From a virus (lineage: Duplodnaviria > Heunggongvirae > Uroviricota > Caudoviricetes), in IMG/VR virus record IMGVR_UViG_2802429247_000008, positions 1 through 12,156 of that record: 12,156 bases of DNA; one strand, 5' to 3'. Positions 2,248-10,604 of the stretch are shown piece after piece. Within the stretch, counting starts at the first letter, position 1. Every line of letters starts with the position of its first letter. The translations under genes were made by a program, and so were the position numbers. Under the pieces are notes generated by a model. It had not been told where the DNA came from, searched no databases, and saw only the letters and a list, made by a program, of their open reading frames with translations.

Positions 2248-2673
2248 TTAGTGCATCACCAGGGCATTTCCCGCCGGACCACCACGATTCATCTGATTGA
2301 AACCAGCGATCGCCACTGCGACAAAATCATCAGCGTCTCTCACCAGTCGTTCCCGCGTCTCCACCAGCTCCCGAAAATAGGCTGAACTGTGGCTGCGCAT
2401 TCGGGCCACCAGCAGAGGTGGCATTGCTTTTTCGATCGCTGGTAACAACGCCTGAATTTTTTTAACCGCATCAGGGGTGTCTTTCTCCACCCAGCGGAAA
2501 ATCTTCTGAGTATTGCGAGCCAGGGCTTCTGGGTGTGAATCGTCGTACAGTTCCGGAAACGTCATACCCAGTTCAAAATAAGCCCGGGTTATTTCAGCTG
2601 CCGGAACTTTTTCTCCGTCCGGATGCGCCCAGGCATTCATCGCCATGCGGATGTGCTCATGCTTGATTTTCAT
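2248..2673 (-). CDS. ydaT: YdaT-family protein (CII-like regulator, historically annotated as a toxin)
   Basis: 141-aa ORF starting MKIKHEHI, directly downstream of and overlapping (ATGA at 2670-2673) the cro-like gene. Size, N-terminus and position match Rac YdaT. Confidence 0.72.
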   Translation of the reverse strand: MKIKHEHIRMAMNAWAHPDGEKVPAAEITRAYFELGMTFPELYDDSHPEALARNTQKIFRWVEKDTPDAVKKIQALLPAIEKAMPPLLVARMRSHSSAYFRELVETRERLVRDADDFVAVAIAGFNQMNRGGPAGNALVMH

Positions 2674-2897
2674 GAATCACTCTTCCTTTCGCTCTGAGTG
2701 GTATCCTTCTTTTTGTAAAGCTCTGGGTTCAAAGATAATTTTCCCTTGGAGTATGCAGCAGCTTCCGCAGCTCTCCCTTTCGGAACTATTTCACCGGGGC
2801 GCTTACGCCACATGTAAATAGCTTCGCGGGTTATCCCATAAAAATCAGCGACCCTCTGAACAGAGCCAAAAAACTGAACAAGTTCATCAACTCGCAT
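2670..2897 (-). CDS. Cro-like HTH regulator (YdaS family)
   Basis: 75-aa ORF transcribed divergently from the repressor. HTH-like segment VADFYGITREAIYMWRKRPGEIVP. ATG at 2895-2897 with AGGAGG 6 nt upstream (revcomp of 2904-2909). Confidence 0.7.
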   Translation of the reverse strand: MRVDELVQFFGSVQRVADFYGITREAIYMWRKRPGEIVPKGRAAEAAAYSKGKLSLNPELYKKKDTTQSERKSDS

Positions 2898-2993
2898 TTC
2901 ACCCTCCTAAAATCTAAGTATTTTTAGATTACAGGATAATTTTTTTTAGGTCAATGCGATCTAAAATAATTTATATTCAACTCGCGGGAGAAA
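2898..2993. promoter_or_regulatory. Divergent promoter/operator region between the cro-like and repressor genes (OR-like)
   Basis: 20-bp near-palindrome AATCTAAGTATTTTTAGATT at 2911-2930 and a further ATCTAAAAT half-site at 2959-2967. Candidate minus-strand promoter: -35 TTGACC (revcomp of 2949-2954), 17-bp spacer, -10 TAATCT (revcomp of 2926-2931) overlapping the palindrome. Candidate plus-strand -10 TATATT at 2972-2977 for the repressor. Confidence 0.55.
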
Positions 2994-3641
2994 ATGATGG
3001 AAAGCCTTGGCATCAGGCTTAAGAAACTCAGAAAAGATAAGGGACTCACCCAAGTAGAACTGGGTAAGCTTTCAGGCGTGACTGGGGTTACTATAGGGTA
3101 CTGGGAGAAAGATCTAAACGAACCCGGCAGCAAAGCTCTAAGTAAGTTAGCCCAAGCATTAGGAACTACTGAGTCCTATCTCCTGTATGGAGTATCGTCT
3201 CCTGAACTATCTTTTGTGCAGAGCAATCCAGGCACCAAGATCCCCTACTTTTCGTGGGGTGACGCGATTTCTTTCCTAATCTTAGAAGGAGAGAAAACAA
3301 TGGGAAATGTCGATAGGATCACCACATTCTTTGATGTAGTGGAAGGTGATTTTGCCGTTTCAATGCCTGATGACACTATGCATAACCCCTCAGGGTCGCC
3401 AAGTATCCCAGTTGGTGCCACTGTGATCCTAAGACCAGGAGAAAGTTATAAAAATGGCAGTATCGTCGCTGTAATAGTTCCAGATCCTCTTACAAATGAA
3501 CCGTCTATGACTATAAAAAAATTAGTTATTGATGGAAAACTTGTGTATTTAAGCCCTCTCAATCCGCGCTATCAATCATCCTTGCTTACGCCAGAGTGTA
3601 AAATTGTTGCCGTAGCAAAAGGTGTACAGTTCAACCTATAA
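2994..3641 (+). CDS. cI/LexA-like prophage repressor (N-terminal XRE HTH, C-terminal S24 peptidase domain)
   Basis: 215 aa. HTH at LTQVELGKLSGVTGVTIGYWEKDLNEP. C-terminal VEGDFAVSMPDD (Ser of the catalytic dyad) and MTIKKLVIDGKLVYLSPLNPRY (Lys of the dyad), closely resembling lambda cI [22 protein letters not shown]. Two tandem ATGs at 2994 and 2997. Confidence 0.85.
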   Translation: MMESLGIRLKKLRKDKGLTQVELGKLSGVTGVTIGYWEKDLNEPGSKALSKLAQALGTTESYLLYGVSSPELSFVQSNPGTKIPYFSWGDAISFLILEGEKTMGNVDRITTFFDVVEGDFAVSMPDDTMHNPSGSPSIPVGATVILRPGESYKNGSIVAVIVPDPLTNEPSMTIKKLVIDGKLVYLSPLNPRYQSSLLTPECKIVAVAKGVQFNL

Positions 3642-3663
3642 CCCTGCCATGTTCTTGAACTTA

Positions 3664-3690
3664 AGGTCGGTTATGCCGACCTTTTTTTTA
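3664..3690 (+). terminator. Rho-independent terminator downstream of the repressor gene
   Basis: Stem GGTCGG (3665-3670) and CCGACC (3676-3681) around a 5-nt loop, followed immediately by an 8-T run (3682-3689). Confidence 0.7.
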
Positions 3691-3708
3691 AATTAATTTA
3701 GATTCCTC

Positions 3709-3737
3709 TTGACTATAAAACTAAATACTTTTAGATT
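3709..3737 (+). promoter_or_regulatory. pL-like promoter with overlapping operator-like site (OL-like)
   Basis: -35 TTGACT (3709-3714), 17-bp spacer, -10 TAGATT (3732-3737). The 20-mer AAACTAAATACTTTTAGATT (3718-3737) matches the OR palindrome at 17 of 20 positions. An extra TTAGATT at 3698-3704. Confidence 0.45.
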
Positions 3738-3908
3738 TATTGCATGCCAACCCATCCCGTCCCCACAGAATGCAGGGCAATACTTCGAGTTACCAGGCAG
3801 TGGTCAGGGGTTAAGTAGCCAGCCCGAGGCGTATGAACATGACGGCGGGATTCAAATTTTGCAGTGCAGCAGTTAGTTCCGCCACCCGGCGTTAAGGGGA
3901 GAGATAAG

Positions 3909-4043
3909 ATGGTGCATTACGAAGTAGTTCAGTATTTGATGGATTGTTGCGGTATCACTTACAACCAGGCTGTGCAGGCTTTACGCAGCAACGACTGGGA
4001 TCTCTGGCAGGCAGAAGTCGCTATACGTAGCAACAAGATGTGA
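3909..4043 (+). CDS. ydaG: YdaG-like small protein (44 aa)
   Basis: ATG at 3909 preceded by GGGGAGAG. Product MVHYEVVQYLMDCCGITYNQAVQALRSNDWDLWQAEVAIRSNKM. Size and position (between repressor and ydaF/sieB) match Rac ydaG. Below the length cutoff of the supplied ORF track. Confidence 0.62.
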   Translation: MVHYEVVQYLMDCCGITYNQAVQALRSNDWDLWQAEVAIRSNKM

Positions 4044-4053
4044 GATTCGCAAA

Positions 4054-4209
4054 ATGCAAAAAATCGACCTCGGCAACAACGAATCCCTGGTGTGCGGCGT
4101 GTTCCCCAACCAGGATGGAACGTTCACTGCCATGACGTATACCAAAAGCAAAACATTTAAAACCGAAACTGGTGCGCGCCGATGGTTGGAGAAGCACACA
4201 GTAAGCTAA
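4054..4209 (+). CDS. ydaF: YdaF-like small protein (DUF1391, 51 aa)
   Basis: ATG at 4054. Product MQKIDLGNNESLVCGVFPNQDGTFTAMTYTKSKTFKTETGARRWLEKHTVS. Matches my recollection of Rac YdaF in size and position. Its stop overlaps the sieB stop convergently. Confidence 0.65.
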   Translation: MQKIDLGNNESLVCGVFPNQDGTFTAMTYTKSKTFKTETGARRWLEKHTVS

Positions 4210-4694
4210 CGATTAAAACGTCTACTCCTGCTGTTCCAGAATAACTTCATAAAATGGGAGTATTTTTCGGTGACGAGATAATAAGAACAGTTTGCGCTAT
4301 CACTCTGATGTTGAATGATGCCCTTCCGTTCTAATTTTTTCATAACCGGGTTACGGCAAGGAGAAGTGATAATAAGATTTCCTGTTTTAAGGAAATCTTT
4401 AAATACAGCGATTTCTTTCTCAGATAAACGAAGCAATACTCGTTGCTCTGGTAGTAATGAATAATGCTTTTGAATATGTGCTCGCAATCTTGAGAAGGAA
4501 ATGGCGACCACGAAAGAAAAGGCAAAAACGATAATCTGAAAGAGCCAAGATATTTCAGTATAAGCATTGAATGCGACAGTAAACTCTTTCGGTATCAGCC
4601 AGAGAGTGAGACCAAAAATGATAATCGTATACATAAGTCTTTCGAGTGGCTCGTTAGCAAAAAGTTTCAACAATGGAGTAAATACATCCAACAT
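4206..4694 (-). CDS. sieB: Superinfection exclusion protein B
   Basis: 162-aa product from ATG at 4692-4694 (MLDVFTPLLKLFANEPLERLMYTIIIFGLTLWLIP...), with hydrophobic membrane segments. The supplied ORF extends 41 codons further upstream to 4817, but that extension looks non-coding. Confidence 0.8.
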   Translation of the reverse strand: MLDVFTPLLKLFANEPLERLMYTIIIFGLTLWLIPKEFTVAFNAYTEISWLFQIIVFAFSFVVAISFSRLRAHIQKHYSLLPEQRVLLRLSEKEIAVFKDFLKTGNLIITSPCRNPVMKKLERKGIIQHQSDSANCSYYLVTEKYSHFMKLFWNSRSRRFNR

Positions 4695-4912
4695 ATCAAT
4701 AACTCTCAACTGTAAGGGTATTGAAATGTTAACACAAGCTCTCGCTGTAGGGGTATAGCCGAGACCACCGAAGCCCGGAGGTGGTGAAATAAAACCGGGC
4801 ACAACACGAAGGCGCATTTCCGATATCCATAAAGAGTCGGTCTTGTCTGTTAAATTTAAATGGTGGGAGTGCGCCTCCGGTTGTAAATAACGACATTGCT
4901 GTGTGTAGTCCT

Positions 4913-4960
4913 GGCGGCATCAGTTTTTTTCTTGAAGTTCGGCTGATGTCCGCCCTTTTT
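4913..4960 (+). terminator. Terminator-like hairpin plus T-run in the sieB/kilR divergent intergenic region
   Basis: Stem GGCGGCATCAG (4913-4923) pairs with CTGATG(T)CCGCC (4943-4954) with one bulge, followed by CTTTTT (4955-4960). The 19-nt loop is large for an intrinsic terminator, so confidence is low. Confidence 0.3.
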
Positions 4961-5135
4961 AAAGTGAATTTTGTGATGCGGTGAATGCGGCTAAGCGCAC
5001 GTGGCACAGTTAAAAGTCATGTTAGTCCTTATTGGTTTGGGTGGGAAAGCCGACTGTAATTGTTAACTGGTTGCAGTCACCTGGAGGCACCAGGCACCGC
5101 ATCAACAAAGTTCATTTGTAAAAATGGAGATAATT

Positions 5136-5357
5136 ATGATTGCACATCACTTCGGAACTGATGAAATACCACGTCAGTGTGTGACTCCTGGCGATTATGT
5201 TCTTCATGAAGGCCGGACATATATTGCCTCGGCAAACAATATTAAAAAGCGAAAACTATATATTCGTAACCTGACCACAAAAACATGCATTACTGACTGC
5301 ATGATTAAAGTTTTCCTCGGTCGTGATGGTTTACCTGTAAAGGCGGAATCATGGTGA
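5136..5357 (+). CDS. kilR: KilR-like killing / cell-division inhibitor protein (73 aa)
   Basis: ATG at 5136 with GGAG 6 nt upstream; the supplied ORF starts 4 codons earlier at 5124 with no SD. Product [35 protein letters not shown].... Position between sieB and ydaE matches Rac kilR. Sequence identity is from memory only. Confidence 0.6.
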
Positions 5358-5978: not shown

Positions 5979-8900
5979 ATGAGCACAAAACCACTCTTCC
6001 TGTTACGGAAAGCGAAAAAATCATCCGGTGAACCTGACGTCGTCCTGTGGGCAAGCGACGATTTTGAATCGACCTGTGCCACTCTGGACTACCTGATCGT
6101 TAAGTCAGGTAAAAAACTGAGCAGCTATTTTAAAGCTGTTGCCACGAATTTTCCTGTCGTTAATGACCTGCCCCCTGAAGGTGAGATCGATTTTACCTGG
6201 AGTGAACGCTATCAACTCAGCAAAGACTCCATGACCTGGGAACTAAAATCGGGAGCAGCGCCAGACGACGTTCACCATCAGGAGAATGCTCAGGAAACCG
6301 AAGAACTGACGGGAGGGCAGGAAGAAAACACACTGGCAGACGCTCACGGGGATTGCCAGGATTGCGAAGTTTCTGTATCTACTTTGCGGTTCACACAGCG
6401 TCTTCTGCACATTTTTACCTATGCGGCCGGGGATCGGAAATACCTGCATCATGCCACCCGAGAACAACGCGAACACATTACTGCTCTTGAGATGGATCAG
6501 GAAAACAGCTATGTCCAGAATCTGCTGTTGGCCATACGCGGCATGGCAGAACCGACAACTCTGGATAATGCCGCCCTGCTCCGCCTGACTGATGCAATTA
6601 AGGGGGTTTTCTCTATCACGAAAAAACATCAGCCCTATGAATTTAAGAATTTCATTTCAGCCTGGCTGGATACCGAACACATTGATCGCGGTCTTCTGAC
6701 AAAAGAATGGCGAAAAGGGAATCGTGTTTCACGCATCACTCGCACGGCTTCCGGTGCTAATGCTGGCGGCGGGAACCTCACCGATCGCGGCGAAGGTTTC
6801 GTCCACGATCTGACGTCACTGGCGCGCGATGTAGCCACTGGCGTACTGGCCCGTTCAATGGACGTGGACATCTATAACCTTCATCCGGCACACGCTAAAC
6901 GCATTGAGGAAATTATCGCTGAAAATAAACCGCCCTTTTCTGTTTTCCGCGACAAATTCATCACCATGCCTGGCGGGCTGGATTATTCACGCGCCATCGT
7001 GGTTGCGTCCGTGAAAGAAGCACCAATTGGGATCGAGGTCATCCCCGCGCACGTCACTGAATATCTGAACAAAGTACTGACTGAAACCGATCATGCCAAC
7101 CCTGATCCGGAAATCGTGGATATTGCCTGCGGTCGCTCCTCTGCCCCGATGCCGCAGCGTGTAACAGAAGAAGGAAAACAGGATGATGAAGAAAAACCGC
7201 AACCATCTGAAACAACGGCAGATGAACAGGGAGAGGCTGAAACAATGGAACCGGACGCAACTGAACATCATCAGGACACGCAGCCGCTGGATGCTCAGTC
7301 ACAGGTAAATTCTGTTGATGCGAAATATCAGGAACTGCGGGCAGAACTCCATGAAGCCCGGAAAAACATTCCATCAAAAAATCCTGTCGATGCCGATAAA
7401 TTGCTTGCTGCATCACGTGGTGAATTTGTTGACGGAATTAGCGACCCGAACGATCCGAAATGGGTTAAGGGGATCCAGACTCGCGATTCTGTGTACCAGA
7501 ACCAGCCAGAAACGGAAAAAACCAGCCCGGATGTGAAACAACCTGAGGCAGTAGTGCAACAGGAACCGGAAATAGTCTGCAATGCCTGCGGTCAGACTGG
7601 CGGAGATAACTGCCCTGACTGTGGGGCGGTGACGGGCGACGCAACATACCAGGAAACATTCGATGAAGAGAATCAGGTTGAAGCTAAGGAAAAAGATCCG
7701 GTGGAAATGGAAGGCGCTGAACATCCGCACAATGAGAATGCTGGCAGCGATCCGCATCGTGATTGCAGTGATGAAACTGGTGAAGCGTCAGCTCCTGTAG
7801 CAACTGAAATCATGTGGCCGTCATATTTCGAGCCTGGCCGCTATGAAAACCTCCCGAACGAGGTTTATCACTCCGCCAACGGAATAAGCAGCACGATGCT
7901 GAAGGATGCCCGTATCAGCCTGATGTATTACCACGGACGGCACATTGCCGGAACTATTCCGAACGAGGAAAGTGATGCACTGCTGCGTGGGCGGATCATT
8001 CACAGCTATGTTCTGGAAACGGATAAATTCGCTGATGAATATGCCATTCCGGTACCGGTTCCTGAATATGTGGTTACTACTTCTAGCGAACTGATCGCCA
8101 TCATTAAAAAACACAATGCCAGTCTGCCAGCACTGATGACACCAGAGCAGATGAAAGAGTGGATCGAAAGCTACAACAGCACTCTTATACAGCCACTGTC
8201 TGTAAGTGCCGGGGCCGAAGAAACAGGCATCCTTTACGGTTCGCTTCCGGTGGAATTTCGGCGTATTCCTGAGGGGGAAAAACACACAGCATCAGCAATG
8301 AAAGCCTGTATTAAAGAATACAACGCAAGCCTCCCTCCTCTGTTGAAAACCAGTGGAGCACGGGAGCAGCTTCTGGATCAAATTGAAACTGTAGACCCAG
8401 AACTGGCAAAAAAAGAACGTGCTAAATCTTTGCCTTACAACATCAGTGGCACAAAAGAGCAATTAACCGAAATCGCACGGAAAATTCGCCCGGAACTGGT
8501 GACACTGGAGGACTGGCAAAAACGCCAGCAAGAAGAAAATGCCGGGAAAACGTTTATCAGTCCGGAGATGTATGAACAGGCAAAAAATATTCACGCGGCA
8601 CTGCAAAACAATACCGATGCAGCAAGGCTACTCAACCACCCGGATCGCAAATCTGAAATCAGCTATTTCGGGTTTGATGAAGAAACCGGGCTGGAAATCA
8701 GGGTCCGTCCTGATATCGAAATCCGGCTGCCATACGAAAGCATTTGCGCTGACGTGAAGTCAGTCAGCCTCGGTTATGTGCGACAGGAACGACTTAAAGA
8801 TCGCCTGCACCGTGAAATTATTGAGCGTGATTATCACCTCAGCGCCGCAATGTATTGCGATGTGGCAAACCTGGACAAATTTTTCTGGATCTTCGTCAAC

Positions 8901-9101
8901 AAAGATGCTGGCTATCACTGGGTGGCAGTCGTGGAAGCCTCGCAGGAACTCCTGGAACTTGGTCGACAGGAATATCGCCGGACGCTACGCCAGATAAACG
9001 AAGCCCTGGAGACAAACAACTGGCCAGCACCGATTACCGAAAGTTATACCGACGAATTAAACGACTTTGATCTTCGTCGTCTTGAAGCACTGAGCATCTG
9101 A
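5979..9101 (+). CDS. recE: Exodeoxyribonuclease VIII (RecE-family 5'-3' dsDNA exonuclease), 1040 aa
   Basis: N-terminus [65 protein letters not shown] is the RecE start as I recall it. Long acidic linker. C-terminal PD-(D/E)xK-type motifs ([22 protein letters not shown]). SD GAGG upstream of ATG 5979. Confidence 0.88.
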
Positions 9102-9112
9102 GGAAGGACACA

Positions 9113-10165
9113 ATGAACGAATTAACTCAACAAGAAAATATTAACTCTAATGTTGCGGTTTTCAGCCCTCAGTCCCTGGCTGCAATTCAGACATTTTCCC
9201 AGGTAATGGCTTCCGGCATGGCTACTGTACCGGAACACCTCCGGGGAAATCCATCAGACTGCATGGCCATCACCATGCAGGCGATGCAGTGGCAAATGAA
9301 CCCTTACGCAGTAGCTCAGAAAACTTTCGTTGTGAATGGTGTGCTCGGATATGAAGCGCAACTGGTTAATGCCGTAATCAGTACTCGTGGGCCGCTAACC
9401 GGGCGTATTGAATATGACTGGTTCGGGCCGTGGGAAAAAATTATCGGGAAATTTGAAATCAGGAAGAGCGACAAAGGGAAAGAATATCGTGTACCTGGCT
9501 GGAAGCTGGCCGATGAAAACGGGATCGGTGTTCGTGTCCAGGCAACACTACGCGGCGAAAGTAAACCACGCGTACTGGAATTACTTCTGGCGCAGGCCAG
9601 AACACGTAACTCAACGCTATGGGCCGACGATCCTCGCCAGCAGCTTGCCTATCTAGCGCTGAAACGCTGGGCGCGCCTTTATTGCCCCGAAGTGATTCTT
9701 GGAGTGTACACCAGGGACGAACTGGACGAGCCACAGGAAAAAATCATTAATCCGGTTCAGGAACATAAAAACACTTCCGCTTGCCGCGCGGAACGTGAAA
9801 CAACAATTATTGAGCAGGATGCCGGGGAAAACTGGATCGATGCTTTCCGTGAACGTATTGAGCAGGCACAAAGCACCGGGGAAACAACAGCACTTCGCCA
9901 GGAAGTGGAAGATCATAAAAATACACTTGGCGCTCTCTATACGGAACTTAAAGGAAAAGTGGTTCAGCGTCATCACCGTCTCAATGCTATTGCCCGTATC
10001 GAGAAGATGATAAATGACCTACCTTCTTCAGGTGATCCAGAAGCAGAACAAAAATTTACTGCTCTGGAAAATACGCTGAATGCTGCCCGGCCACATCTGG
10101 GTGAATTATATGAGGCGTATAAAACGACACTGACAGATATGAAACCAGAATATATCGGCTCCTGA
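9113..10165 (+). CDS. Single-strand annealing protein of the RecT/Red-beta superfamily (Red-beta-like), 350 aa
   Basis: Immediately downstream of recE (11-nt gap, SD GAGGAAGGA). The segment WADDPRQQLAYLALKRWARLYCPEVILGVYTRDELDE resembles lambda Red-beta WQSHPKRMLRHKAMIQCARLAFGFAGIYDKDEAE. It does not resemble K-12 RecT as I remember it. Confidence 0.7.
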   Translation: MNELTQQENINSNVAVFSPQSLAAIQTFSQVMASGMATVPEHLRGNPSDCMAITMQAMQWQMNPYAVAQKTFVVNGVLGYEAQLVNAVISTRGPLTGRIEYDWFGPWEKIIGKFEIRKSDKGKEYRVPGWKLADENGIGVRVQATLRGESKPRVLELLLAQARTRNSTLWADDPRQQLAYLALKRWARLYCPEVILGVYTRDELDEPQEKIINPVQEHKNTSACRAERETTIIEQDAGENWIDAFRERIEQAQSTGETTALRQEVEDHKNTLGALYTELKGKVVQRHHRLNAIARIEKMINDLPSSGDPEAEQKFTALENTLNAARPHLGELYEAYKTTLTDMKPEYIGS

Positions 10166-10228: not shown

Positions 10229-10423
10229 ATGCGGTATGAAAAAGTCAAACCATGCCCTTTTTGTGGTTGTCCATCAGTAACGGTGAAAGCCATTTCAGGA
10301 TATTACCGCGCGAAGTGTAACGGATGCGAATCCCGAACCGGCTATGGTGGAAGTGAAAAAGAAGCACTCGAACGATGGAATAAACGAACCACTGGAAATA
10401 ATAATGGAGGTGTTCATGTATAA
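10229..10423 (+). CDS. ralR: Restriction alleviation protein (Lar/RalR family), 64 aa
   Basis: Product MRYEKVKPCPFCGCPSVTVKAISGYYRAKCNGCESRTGYGGSEKEALERWNKRT has the CPFCG ... CNGC zinc-ribbon typical of Lar. The supplied ORF starts 5 codons upstream at 10214; the ATG at 10229 is chosen by homology. Confidence 0.8.
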   Translation: MRYEKVKPCPFCGCPSVTVKAISGYYRAKCNGCESRTGYGGSEKEALERWNKRTTGNNNGGVHV

Positions 10424-10604
10424 AATTACCGCCACTATTGAAAAGGAAGGTGGCACTCCTACTAACTGGACAAGGTACTCAAAAACAAAATTAACCAAAT
10501 CAGAATGCGAAAAAATGCTCTCAGGTAAAAAAGAAGCAGGCGTTTCCAGAGAGCAGAAAGTAAAACTGATAAATTTTAATTGCGAGCAACTTCAGTCCTC
10601 GTGA
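10416..10604 (+). CDS. ydaC: YdaC-like protein (DUF1187), 62 aa
   Basis: ATG at 10416 with GGAGG 5 nt upstream; overlaps the ralR 3' end by 8 nt. Product MYKITATIEKEGGTPTNWTRYSKTKLTKSECEKMLSGKKEAGVSREQKVKLINFNCEQLQSS. The supplied ORF 10344-10604 carries an N-terminal extension I consider spurious. Confidence 0.62.
   Translation: MYKITATIEKEGGTPTNWTRYSKTKLTKSECEKMLSGKKEAGVSREQKVKLINFNCEQLQSS

Follow-up and report, generated by a model that had tools for sequence, protein, structure and literature searches.

In phage lambda, the CI repressor cleaves itself at Ala111–Gly112 by means of Ser149 and Lys192. The operators of phage P22 are 18 bp long, with contacts at positions 2–7 and 12–17 and a non-contacted, A/T-rich centre at positions 8–11 (PMC5175364, PMC4267663). 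Their published consensus is ATTTAAGATATCTTAAAT (PMC5175364), and to an operator with C at position 3 (3C) the P22 repressor binds only non-specifically (PMC4267663). Other repressors are lifted by partner proteins: DicA, which has no Ala-Gly bond, is relieved by an antirepressor (PMC10448788), and the non-cleavable repressors of the Gifsy type are controlled by LexA-regulated antirepressors (PMC3121763).

The window, the whole stretch of 12,156 bases that we analysed, represents the early-left arm, together with the immunity region, of a lambdoid E. coli prophage resembling Rac and Qin. It shares the Rac backbone, comprising ydaG, ydaF, sieB, a kil-like gene, racC, recE, recT, RalA and an integrase gene. 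On the minus strand, a cro-like gene (2670–2897, 75 aa; Pfam P22_Cro, E 1.2e-9), whose product has N15 Cro (2hin) as its best solved relative (E 2.8e-4), opens the early-right operon; a YdaT-family gene in the cII position (2248–2673) comes after it, and an O-like replication gene with an HTH_36 domain (1277–2224; open reading frame list and domain search) and a DUF977 gene lie on the same strand. Divergent from the cro-like gene across a gap of 96 bp, the plus strand carries the gene for a CI-like repressor of 215 aa (2994–3641; RefSeq start at 2997, giving 214 aa), with a Pfam HTH_3 N-terminal domain and a Peptidase_S24 C-terminal domain; it is 100% identical to protein P0001, labelled as a LexA family regulator from E. 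coli. An intrinsic terminator (3663–3690, plus strand; 9-bp stem with 5 GC pairs, then a T-run) lies 3′ of the repressor gene. Farther along the plus strand are small ydaG/ydaF-like open reading frames, RecE (1040 aa), RecT and the integrase; the early-left arm behind the promoter PL holds ydaG/ydaF, a kilR-like gene, racC, recE and recT, and SieB is encoded on the strand opposite to the repressor, RecE and RecT. Rfam places RalA at 10422–10600 on the minus strand and gives sub-threshold DicF-like and STnc100-like matches. The immunity module (2600–3900) is 96–98% identical to prophages of other E. coli genomes, in which it is joined to dicB-type left arms, and within the phage collection searched an identical repressor occurs in two records only.

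Two near-identical 20-mers that bracket the repressor gene had been singled out in a sequence-only reading, and their coordinates are right: AATCTAAGTATTTTTAGATT at 2911–2930 and AAACTAAATACTTTTAGATT at 3718–3737 agree at 17 of 20 positions and differ at positions 3, 8 and 11. When up to three mismatches were allowed on both strands of the 12,156 bases, the sole matches were the two 20-mers themselves (0.01 expected by chance), and none of 200 dinucleotide-preserving shuffles held two such matches. Both are inverted repeats of the form AATCTAA-N6-TTAGATT. The bare 7-mer TTAGATT is not significantly enriched, with four occurrences against 1.82 expected and 19 of 200 shuffles reaching four; these occurrences (2911–2917 on the minus strand, 2924–2930, 3698–3704 and 3731–3737) are confined to the two intergenic regions.

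The same reading took the 20-mers to define the likely recognition sequence of the repressor. That they are operator-like sites stands, but the conserved unit is their inner 18 bp. We rejected the 20-mer as the unit: its outer A and T are weakly conserved in relatives, except for the T at 3737, with which the PL −10 element ends. The predicted recognition unit is a P22-like site of 18 bp, built as 7+4+7 bp with the consensus AWCTAAR-N4-YTTAGWT. Scanning the window with ATCTAAR-N4-YTTAGAT (14 scored positions) returned four sites matching at 12 or more positions, namely OR1, OR3, OL2 and OL1, all in the intergenic regions that flank the repressor gene, against 0.17 expected per random window. 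Because both the motif and the intergenic DNA around it are A/T-rich, low thresholds yield inflated numbers of matches: 13 sites scoring at least 10/14 are expected per random window. Shuffles rule out a chance origin of both the 20-mer pair and the 18-bp sites. The extra half-sites reported at 2959–2967 (where ATCTAAAAT is indeed found) and 3698–3704 are present, but they are not stand-alone halves: they belong to the complete sites OR3 and OL2. With a weaker fifth site, OR2, the 4-bp centres in the window are TATT, TTTT, ATAA, TTAA and TACT.

The right operator OR is tripartite, with centres 22 and 25 bp apart and sites that overlap the cro promoter PR and the repressor maintenance promoter PRM. 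OR1 (2912–2929; ATCTAAG and TTTAGAT about TATT) is the best site in the window, at 14/14; it takes in the final 4 bases of the PR −10 element together with the region where the cro transcript would start, and 3 nt separate its end from the Shine-Dalgarno sequence of cro. OR2 (2934–2951; GGATAAT and TTTAGGT about TTTT) is weak, at 9/14 with a right half of 6/7, and is called in the window on positional conservation only; it lies over the PR spacer, takes in the final 3 bases of the PR −35 element and sits where P22 has its OR2. Its counterparts in relatives score 10–12/14 (for example, AGCTAATTTATTTTAGAT in locus L040 and TTCTAAGTTTATTTTGAT in locus L009). OR3 (2959–2976; ATCTAAA and TTTATAT about ATAA) scores 13/14 and contains TAAAAT (2962–2967), the putative PRM −10 element. 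The putative PR (2926–2954, minus strand) consists of TTGACC (2954–2949), a 17-nt spacer and TAATCT (2931–2926), which overlaps the first 20-mer by 4–5 bases. The consensus promoter scan did not call PR, whose −10 element matches the consensus at 3/6 positions; a TTGAYC-17-TAnnnT arrangement is kept at its place in 59 of 68 distinct relatives.

On the other side of the repressor gene, the early-left promoter PL (3709–3737, plus strand) reads TTGACT-17-TAGATT, scores 9/12 in the consensus scan and is conserved in relatives. OL2 (3686–3703; TTTTAAA and TTTAGAT about TTAA; 12/14), into which the T-tract of the terminator at 3663–3690 extends, ends 5 bp upstream of the PL −35 element. OL1 (3719–3736; AACTAAA and TTTAGAT about TACT) scores 13/14 against ATCTAAR and its partner half, and 14/14 if the first half is relaxed to AWCTAAR; it lies over the PL spacer and over 5 bases of the PL −10 hexamer, TAGATT, which also overlaps the second 20-mer. 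The centres of OL2 and OL1 are 33 bp apart (33–36 bp in relatives). The predicted left operator OL is at least bipartite, with OL1 and OL2 placed around TTGACT-17-TAGATT. A third OL site was sought and rejected; the terminator stem fills the place of OL3 in P22, and no site of at least 10/14 is found there. The overlap of each 20-mer with a −10 element, proposed earlier, thus holds for PL by consensus scan and for PR by eye and by conservation, and the proposed OR/OL arrangement is supported by the order of the genes, the protein families, the promoter overlaps and the conservation across relatives.

For the comparative analysis, related loci were collected from species-representative genomes, from a protein search with subsequent contig look-ups and from IMG/VR, and phage mEp460 was added, giving 68 distinct regulatory-region variants with repressors 42–100% identical to that of the window. 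Besides mEp460, the relatives come from E. coli, Salmonella, Yersinia, Xenorhabdus, Arsenophonus and Symbiopectobacterium. The surrounding intergenic DNA of these loci is not alignable, yet the sites recur at the same offsets from the repressor start (OR1 at −82 to −100, OR2 at −60 to −76 and OR3 at −35 to −51), and two more sites, 33–36 bp apart, flank a TTGxxx −35 element downstream of the repressor gene. Across the 68 variants, the OR zone holds 19.7 sites of at least 12/14 per kb versus 0.026 per kb elsewhere, an approximately 770-fold enrichment that overstates the count of independent observations, since related loci share descent and are not phylogenetically independent.

Within the sites, conservation follows the predicted half-sites. 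Pooling 146 half-sites gives the logo A (135), W, C (116), T (142), A (145), A (146), R, W, W, in which positions 1 and 3–6 are conserved and positions 8–9 are A or T in all but 6 or fewer of the 146; palindromes from Xenorhabdus are near-perfect (for example, ATCTAAGTAAACTTAGAT). A set of 27 close OR variants shows variation in 9 of 54 operator columns, versus 19 of 42 other intergenic columns, and in this set all 18 columns of OR3 are invariant. The left half-site of OL1, AACTAAA, is also invariant, while the central 4 bp drift (TACT, TATT, TAGA, TTAT). On the protein side, the recognition-helix stretch GV[TS][GD]V[TAS][IV]GYWEKD is nearly invariant among the repressors of relatives. Fixed half-sites, free centres and flanks, and offsets kept across genera form, as read from these alignments, the pattern that is given by selection on binding sites.

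The closest parallel is with P22. The N-terminal domain of the repressor matches the P22 C2 structures 1adr, 2r1j and 3jxb (phmmer E 3e-7 to 6e-7); the two proteins are alike in length (215 aa here, 216 aa in P22) and domain plan, and as in P22 the partner protein is of the P22_Cro family. The sites of both systems are 18 bp long, with 7-bp half-sites and a 4-bp A/T-rich centre. Their half-sites differ systematically at position 3 only (ATCTAAG here, ATTTAAG in P22): position 3 is C in 116 of the 146 half-sites, where the TTAA core that the P22 repressor requires for binding has T. In the recognition helix, P22 has S31-N32-V33-A34-I35-S36-Q37 and the window's repressor T-G-V-T-I-G-Y, with the V aligned to P22 Val33 of the ‘valine cleft’. 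Given that the P22 repressor binds 3C operators only non-specifically, the prophage in the window should be heteroimmune to P22; its operator architecture appears to be related to that of P22 and its specificity different.

The geometry of the regulatory region also closely resembles that of P22. The gaps between OR sites are 5 and 7 bp in P22 and 4 and 7 bp here, and the centres of OR1 and OR3 lie 48 bp apart in P22 and 47 bp apart here; for OL1 and OL2, the corresponding distances are 35 and 33 bp. In both systems, the PR −35 element is formed by the last three bases of OR2 plus CAA (TTGACT in P22, TTGACC here), the PR −10 element reaches into OR1, the PL −10 element is the right half of OL1 plus one T (TAAATT in P22, TAGATT here), and the PRM −10 element occupies positions 4–9 of OR3 (TAAGAT in P22, TAAAAT here). 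The PRM −35 position falls, again in both, in the centre of OR2 and has almost no match to the consensus. The systems differ in that P22 has an OL3, whereas none is evident here because the terminator occupies its place; that the predicted PRM transcript would carry a leader of approximately 20 nt with a Shine-Dalgarno sequence, whereas that of P22 starts 4 nt before the ATG; and that the window, unlike P22, lacks a gene 24/N homologue and a boxA in its PL leader.

Likeness to lambda is one of logic. Both systems have divergent repressor and cro genes, a tripartite OR lying over two promoters and, downstream of the repressor gene and in its orientation, an OL/PL cluster. The lambda operators, however, are 17 bp long and unrelated in sequence to the sites in the window, and lambda CI is a distant relative in its N-terminal domain, the match between the two proteins (E about 4e-5) being confined to the C-terminal domains.

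The 20-mers are very probably OR1 and OL1, the strongest of five predicted 18-bp operators in a P22-type lysis/lysogeny switch of a Rac/Qin-like prophage. From the sites, statistics, conservation, geometry and protein homologies that we computed, we infer the binder, its cooperativity, the activation step and the transcription starts. Homology with P22 and lambda suggests that the 215-aa repressor would bind, as dimers, OR1 and, cooperatively, the weak OR2. Their occupancy would hide the −10/+1 region and the −35 element and spacer of PR, switching off the operon of cro, ydaT and the replication genes, while the dimer at OR2, which would adjoin the almost absent PRM −35 element, probably activates repressor synthesis. 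OR3 may be bound at a high repressor level, or by the Cro-like protein, to turn PRM off. Dimers at OL1 and OL2 would flank the PL −35 element and cover the −10 element, keeping the ydaG/kil/recET arm silent.

The palindromes could instead be operators of another protein, either the Cro-like protein only or another regulator of the module, such as the YdaT-family protein in the cII position, with the 215-aa protein binding elsewhere. The gene adjacent to OR1 encodes a P22_Cro-like HTH protein, Cro binds the same sites in lambda-type switches, and the assignment of the sites to a particular protein is indirect. We nevertheless consider another binder unlikely: the 18-bp, 7+4+7 layout with a TAA core and an A/T centre is that of the operator of P22 C2, the repressor's nearest homologue of solved structure (PMC5175364), the sites stay with the repressor gene where cro and the downstream genes differ, and the OL sites lie downstream of that gene even in loci with unrelated early-left genes.

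Two further explanations dispense with a repressor and appear more improbable still. The likeness of the 20-mers might follow from the presence of two A/T-rich sigma-70 promoters, or from an ancient duplication of a promoter region. Dyad symmetry is no property of promoters, however, and although both 20-mers overlap −10 elements and bare TTAGATT is not significantly enriched, the expected numbers are 0.01 for the 20-mer pair and 0.17 for sites of at least 12/14. Over 32 nt, the OR3 side and OL show 72% complementarity, which a common ancestry of PR and PL would predict; against this, the half-site positions stay fixed where the central 4 bp and the flanks change, and the motif stands at fixed offsets in distant genera. 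We regard a promoter-based origin of the likeness as highly unlikely. Equally improbable is that the inverted repeats act as RNA hairpins in the cro and early-left leaders, affecting translation or stability, and not as DNA operators. A hairpin at OR1, 3 nt from the cro Shine-Dalgarno sequence, could affect ribosome access, but the predicted transcription starts lie inside OR1 and just downstream of OL1, so that neither full palindrome would be transcribed; OR3, OR2 and OL2, moreover, are upstream of the promoters that they flank, and the stems would consist of seven A/U-rich pairs.

As a set of predicted operators for the 215-aa repressor, the module is an ordinary, uncharacterised case of a textbook mechanism, and in concept it adds nothing to the lambda/P22 paradigm. 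Within the literature that could be searched, there was no experimental work on this repressor or operator, and the sole match in a text search for AACTAAG was an unrelated oligonucleotide linker. What the module offers is a testable operator consensus, AWCTAAR-N4-YTTAGWT, and a promoter map, both predicted, for an E. coli prophage immunity module with repressor relatives of the same site layout in several other genera. It is predicted to control recET, kil and sieB and, in sister prophages, also dicB and DicF. It would also be a natural specificity variant of the P22 repressor-operator pair (3C in place of 3T, with a T-G-V-T-I-G-Y helix), usable for studies of specificity shifts in HTH proteins.

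How the repressor is inactivated may set this switch apart from lambda and P22. In an alignment with LexA, lambda CI and P22 C2, the G[DNM]SM motif is replaced by DDTM, with Thr for the catalytic Ser, and the xAGx cleavage site by DAIS; the Lys is kept (TIKKL). In terms of lambda CI, Ala111, Gly112 and Ser149 are not conserved and the equivalent of Lys192 is, and the Ser nucleophile and Ala-Gly site present in P22 C2 are likewise absent. In every examined relative that is 49–100% identical to the window's repressor, Thr likewise replaces Ser and the Ala-Gly bond is missing, with the Lys and the remainder of the S24 domain retained, whereas relatives of 208 aa (about 42% identical) have the canonical cleavage residues. 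A lambda-like label for the locus therefore fits its OR/OL layout but is not to be extended to SOS induction by self-cleavage, as the Ser nucleophile and the Ala-Gly site needed for it are absent. We tentatively entertain a repressor that does not undergo RecA-stimulated self-cleavage, whose S24 domain might be only a dimerization and cooperativity module, with induction requiring an antirepressor or other input, or might cleave at a non-canonical site by means of a Thr/Lys dyad. Control through an antirepressor has precedents in DicA and Gifsy, and Gifsy provides a possible analogy for induction in that the canonical self-cleavage residues are also missing here. Unlike the Gifsy case, the window's repressor has a full S24 domain with the Lys kept, and neither an antirepressor gene nor a LexA box was found in the window; LexA boxes there score no better than chance, and no antirepressor is annotated in a phage record with the identical repressor.

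Despite the shared backbone, the immunity regions of Rac (RacR/YdaS) and Qin (DicA/DicC/dicBp) in E. coli K-12 are of another kind. RacR and DicA are short HTH proteins (about 135–160 aa) without an S24 domain, and a short repressor of this type is ruled out here by the 215-aa length and the Peptidase_S24 domain. The operators of Rac/Qin are also unrelated to those in the window; in Tritos and 666R9, for example, AAAGTACTTTAC-type sites stand before the same leader. DNA similarity to Rac-type and DicA-type phages begins at 3747, downstream of OL.

The leader downstream of PL contains a C-rich tract followed by a block of roughly 45 nt, TAAGTAGCCAGCCYGAGGCRYAYGAACATGAMGGC (3811–3847). We set aside a known RNA as its identity: the block had no match in Rfam even at E ≤ 1, no similarity to the putL region of HK022 and no covarying structure in RNAalifold. 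Its single-sequence fold is no more stable than those of shuffles (z = −0.38), and the short open reading frames in it, on either strand, are not conserved by eye in length or third-position pattern. The block is absent from Qin of K-12. Elsewhere, prophages with repressors of three unrelated types, ranging from E. coli to Arsenophonus, Phlomobacter and Symbiopectobacterium, carry it almost unchanged, and in some of these prophages it is followed by a boxA-like sequence, CGCTCTTTAACA.

The early-left promoter PL (3709-3737, + strand) is followed by a leader (window positions 3745-3860, core 3811-3847) that carries a C-rich, G-poor tract and, after it, a block of about 45 nt that hardly varies, TAAGTAGCCAGCCYGAGGCRYAYGAACATGAMGGC. 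We find this block at several of the loci compared from other genomes and phages (L007:1124 and 2960, L006:3320, L045:3353, L047:3332 and L050:2552, and also in L003, L004 and L051), and it occurs in several genera and in prophages whose repressors belong to three unrelated families. Within the block lies an ATG that does not vary, with GAGG ahead of it, but the open reading frame that follows is variable, at 4-18 codons. In Arsenophonus and Symbiopectobacterium, a boxA-like sequence follows the block. A search of the block against Rfam returned no match, comparison with put revealed no similarity and a search for a covarying fold within it found none; the block is also absent from K-12 Qin. 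The PL leader block is a putative cis element.

Mosaic joints are seen at window 3747-3900. Relatives with the same repressor match window 2600-3900 up to about position 3900, beyond which they carry a dicB-type arm instead; in phages with RacR-like or DicA-like repressors, a 96-99% match starts at 3747 (compared span 3747-4300). The leader is thus a segment held in common, lying between immunity and left-arm modules that can be exchanged.

Within the immunity region, the 215-aa repressor (2994-3641, + strand) is altered at two sites of its S24 domain, around residues 88-92 and 126-130. Aligned with LexA, lambda CI and P22 C2, it places the Thr of a DDTM motif opposite their catalytic Ser and the Ala-Ile of a DAIS motif opposite their Ala-Gly cleavage site; the catalytic Lys is retained (TIKKL). 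All examined relatives that are 49-100% identical to this repressor share this pattern, whereas in the 208-aa relatives the two motifs are canonical, GDSM and VQAG. Judged from these two replacements, the repressor may not be SOS-cleavable. A protein 100% identical to it is encoded on a contig of 1.8 kb that was assigned to a Collinsella metagenome-assembled genome (L005, JAIHTM010000357.1); this contig almost certainly comes from an enterobacterial prophage and was placed in the wrong bin of a gut metagenome.

The region of the predicted operator OR1 (2905-2940) recurs as an ungapped 36-nt direct repeat at 4247-4282, TCATAAAATGGGAGTATTTTTCGGTGACGAGATAAT, with 75% identity, inside the 3′ part of sieB. 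The two copies agree in their flanks and centre but not at the half-site positions, and the sieB copy is without dyad symmetry; it is probably a chance resemblance or a relic.

Farther along the left arm, RecE (5979-9101, 1,040 aa) and RecT (9113-10165, 350 aa) are longer than their K-12 Rac counterparts (866 and 269 aa), suggesting that the recET module is intact rather than truncated. Between sieB and the kil-like gene, Rfam gives two sub-threshold matches on the + strand, one DicF-like (4900-4955, 39.1 bits against a gathering score of 48) and one STnc100-like (4957-5143, 35.5 bits against 47), in a place analogous to that of dicF in Qin. The antitoxin small RNA RalA is matched at full length on the − strand (10422-10600, 215 bits, E = 8e-52); as in Rac, it lies between recT and xis/int, antisense to the ralR position.
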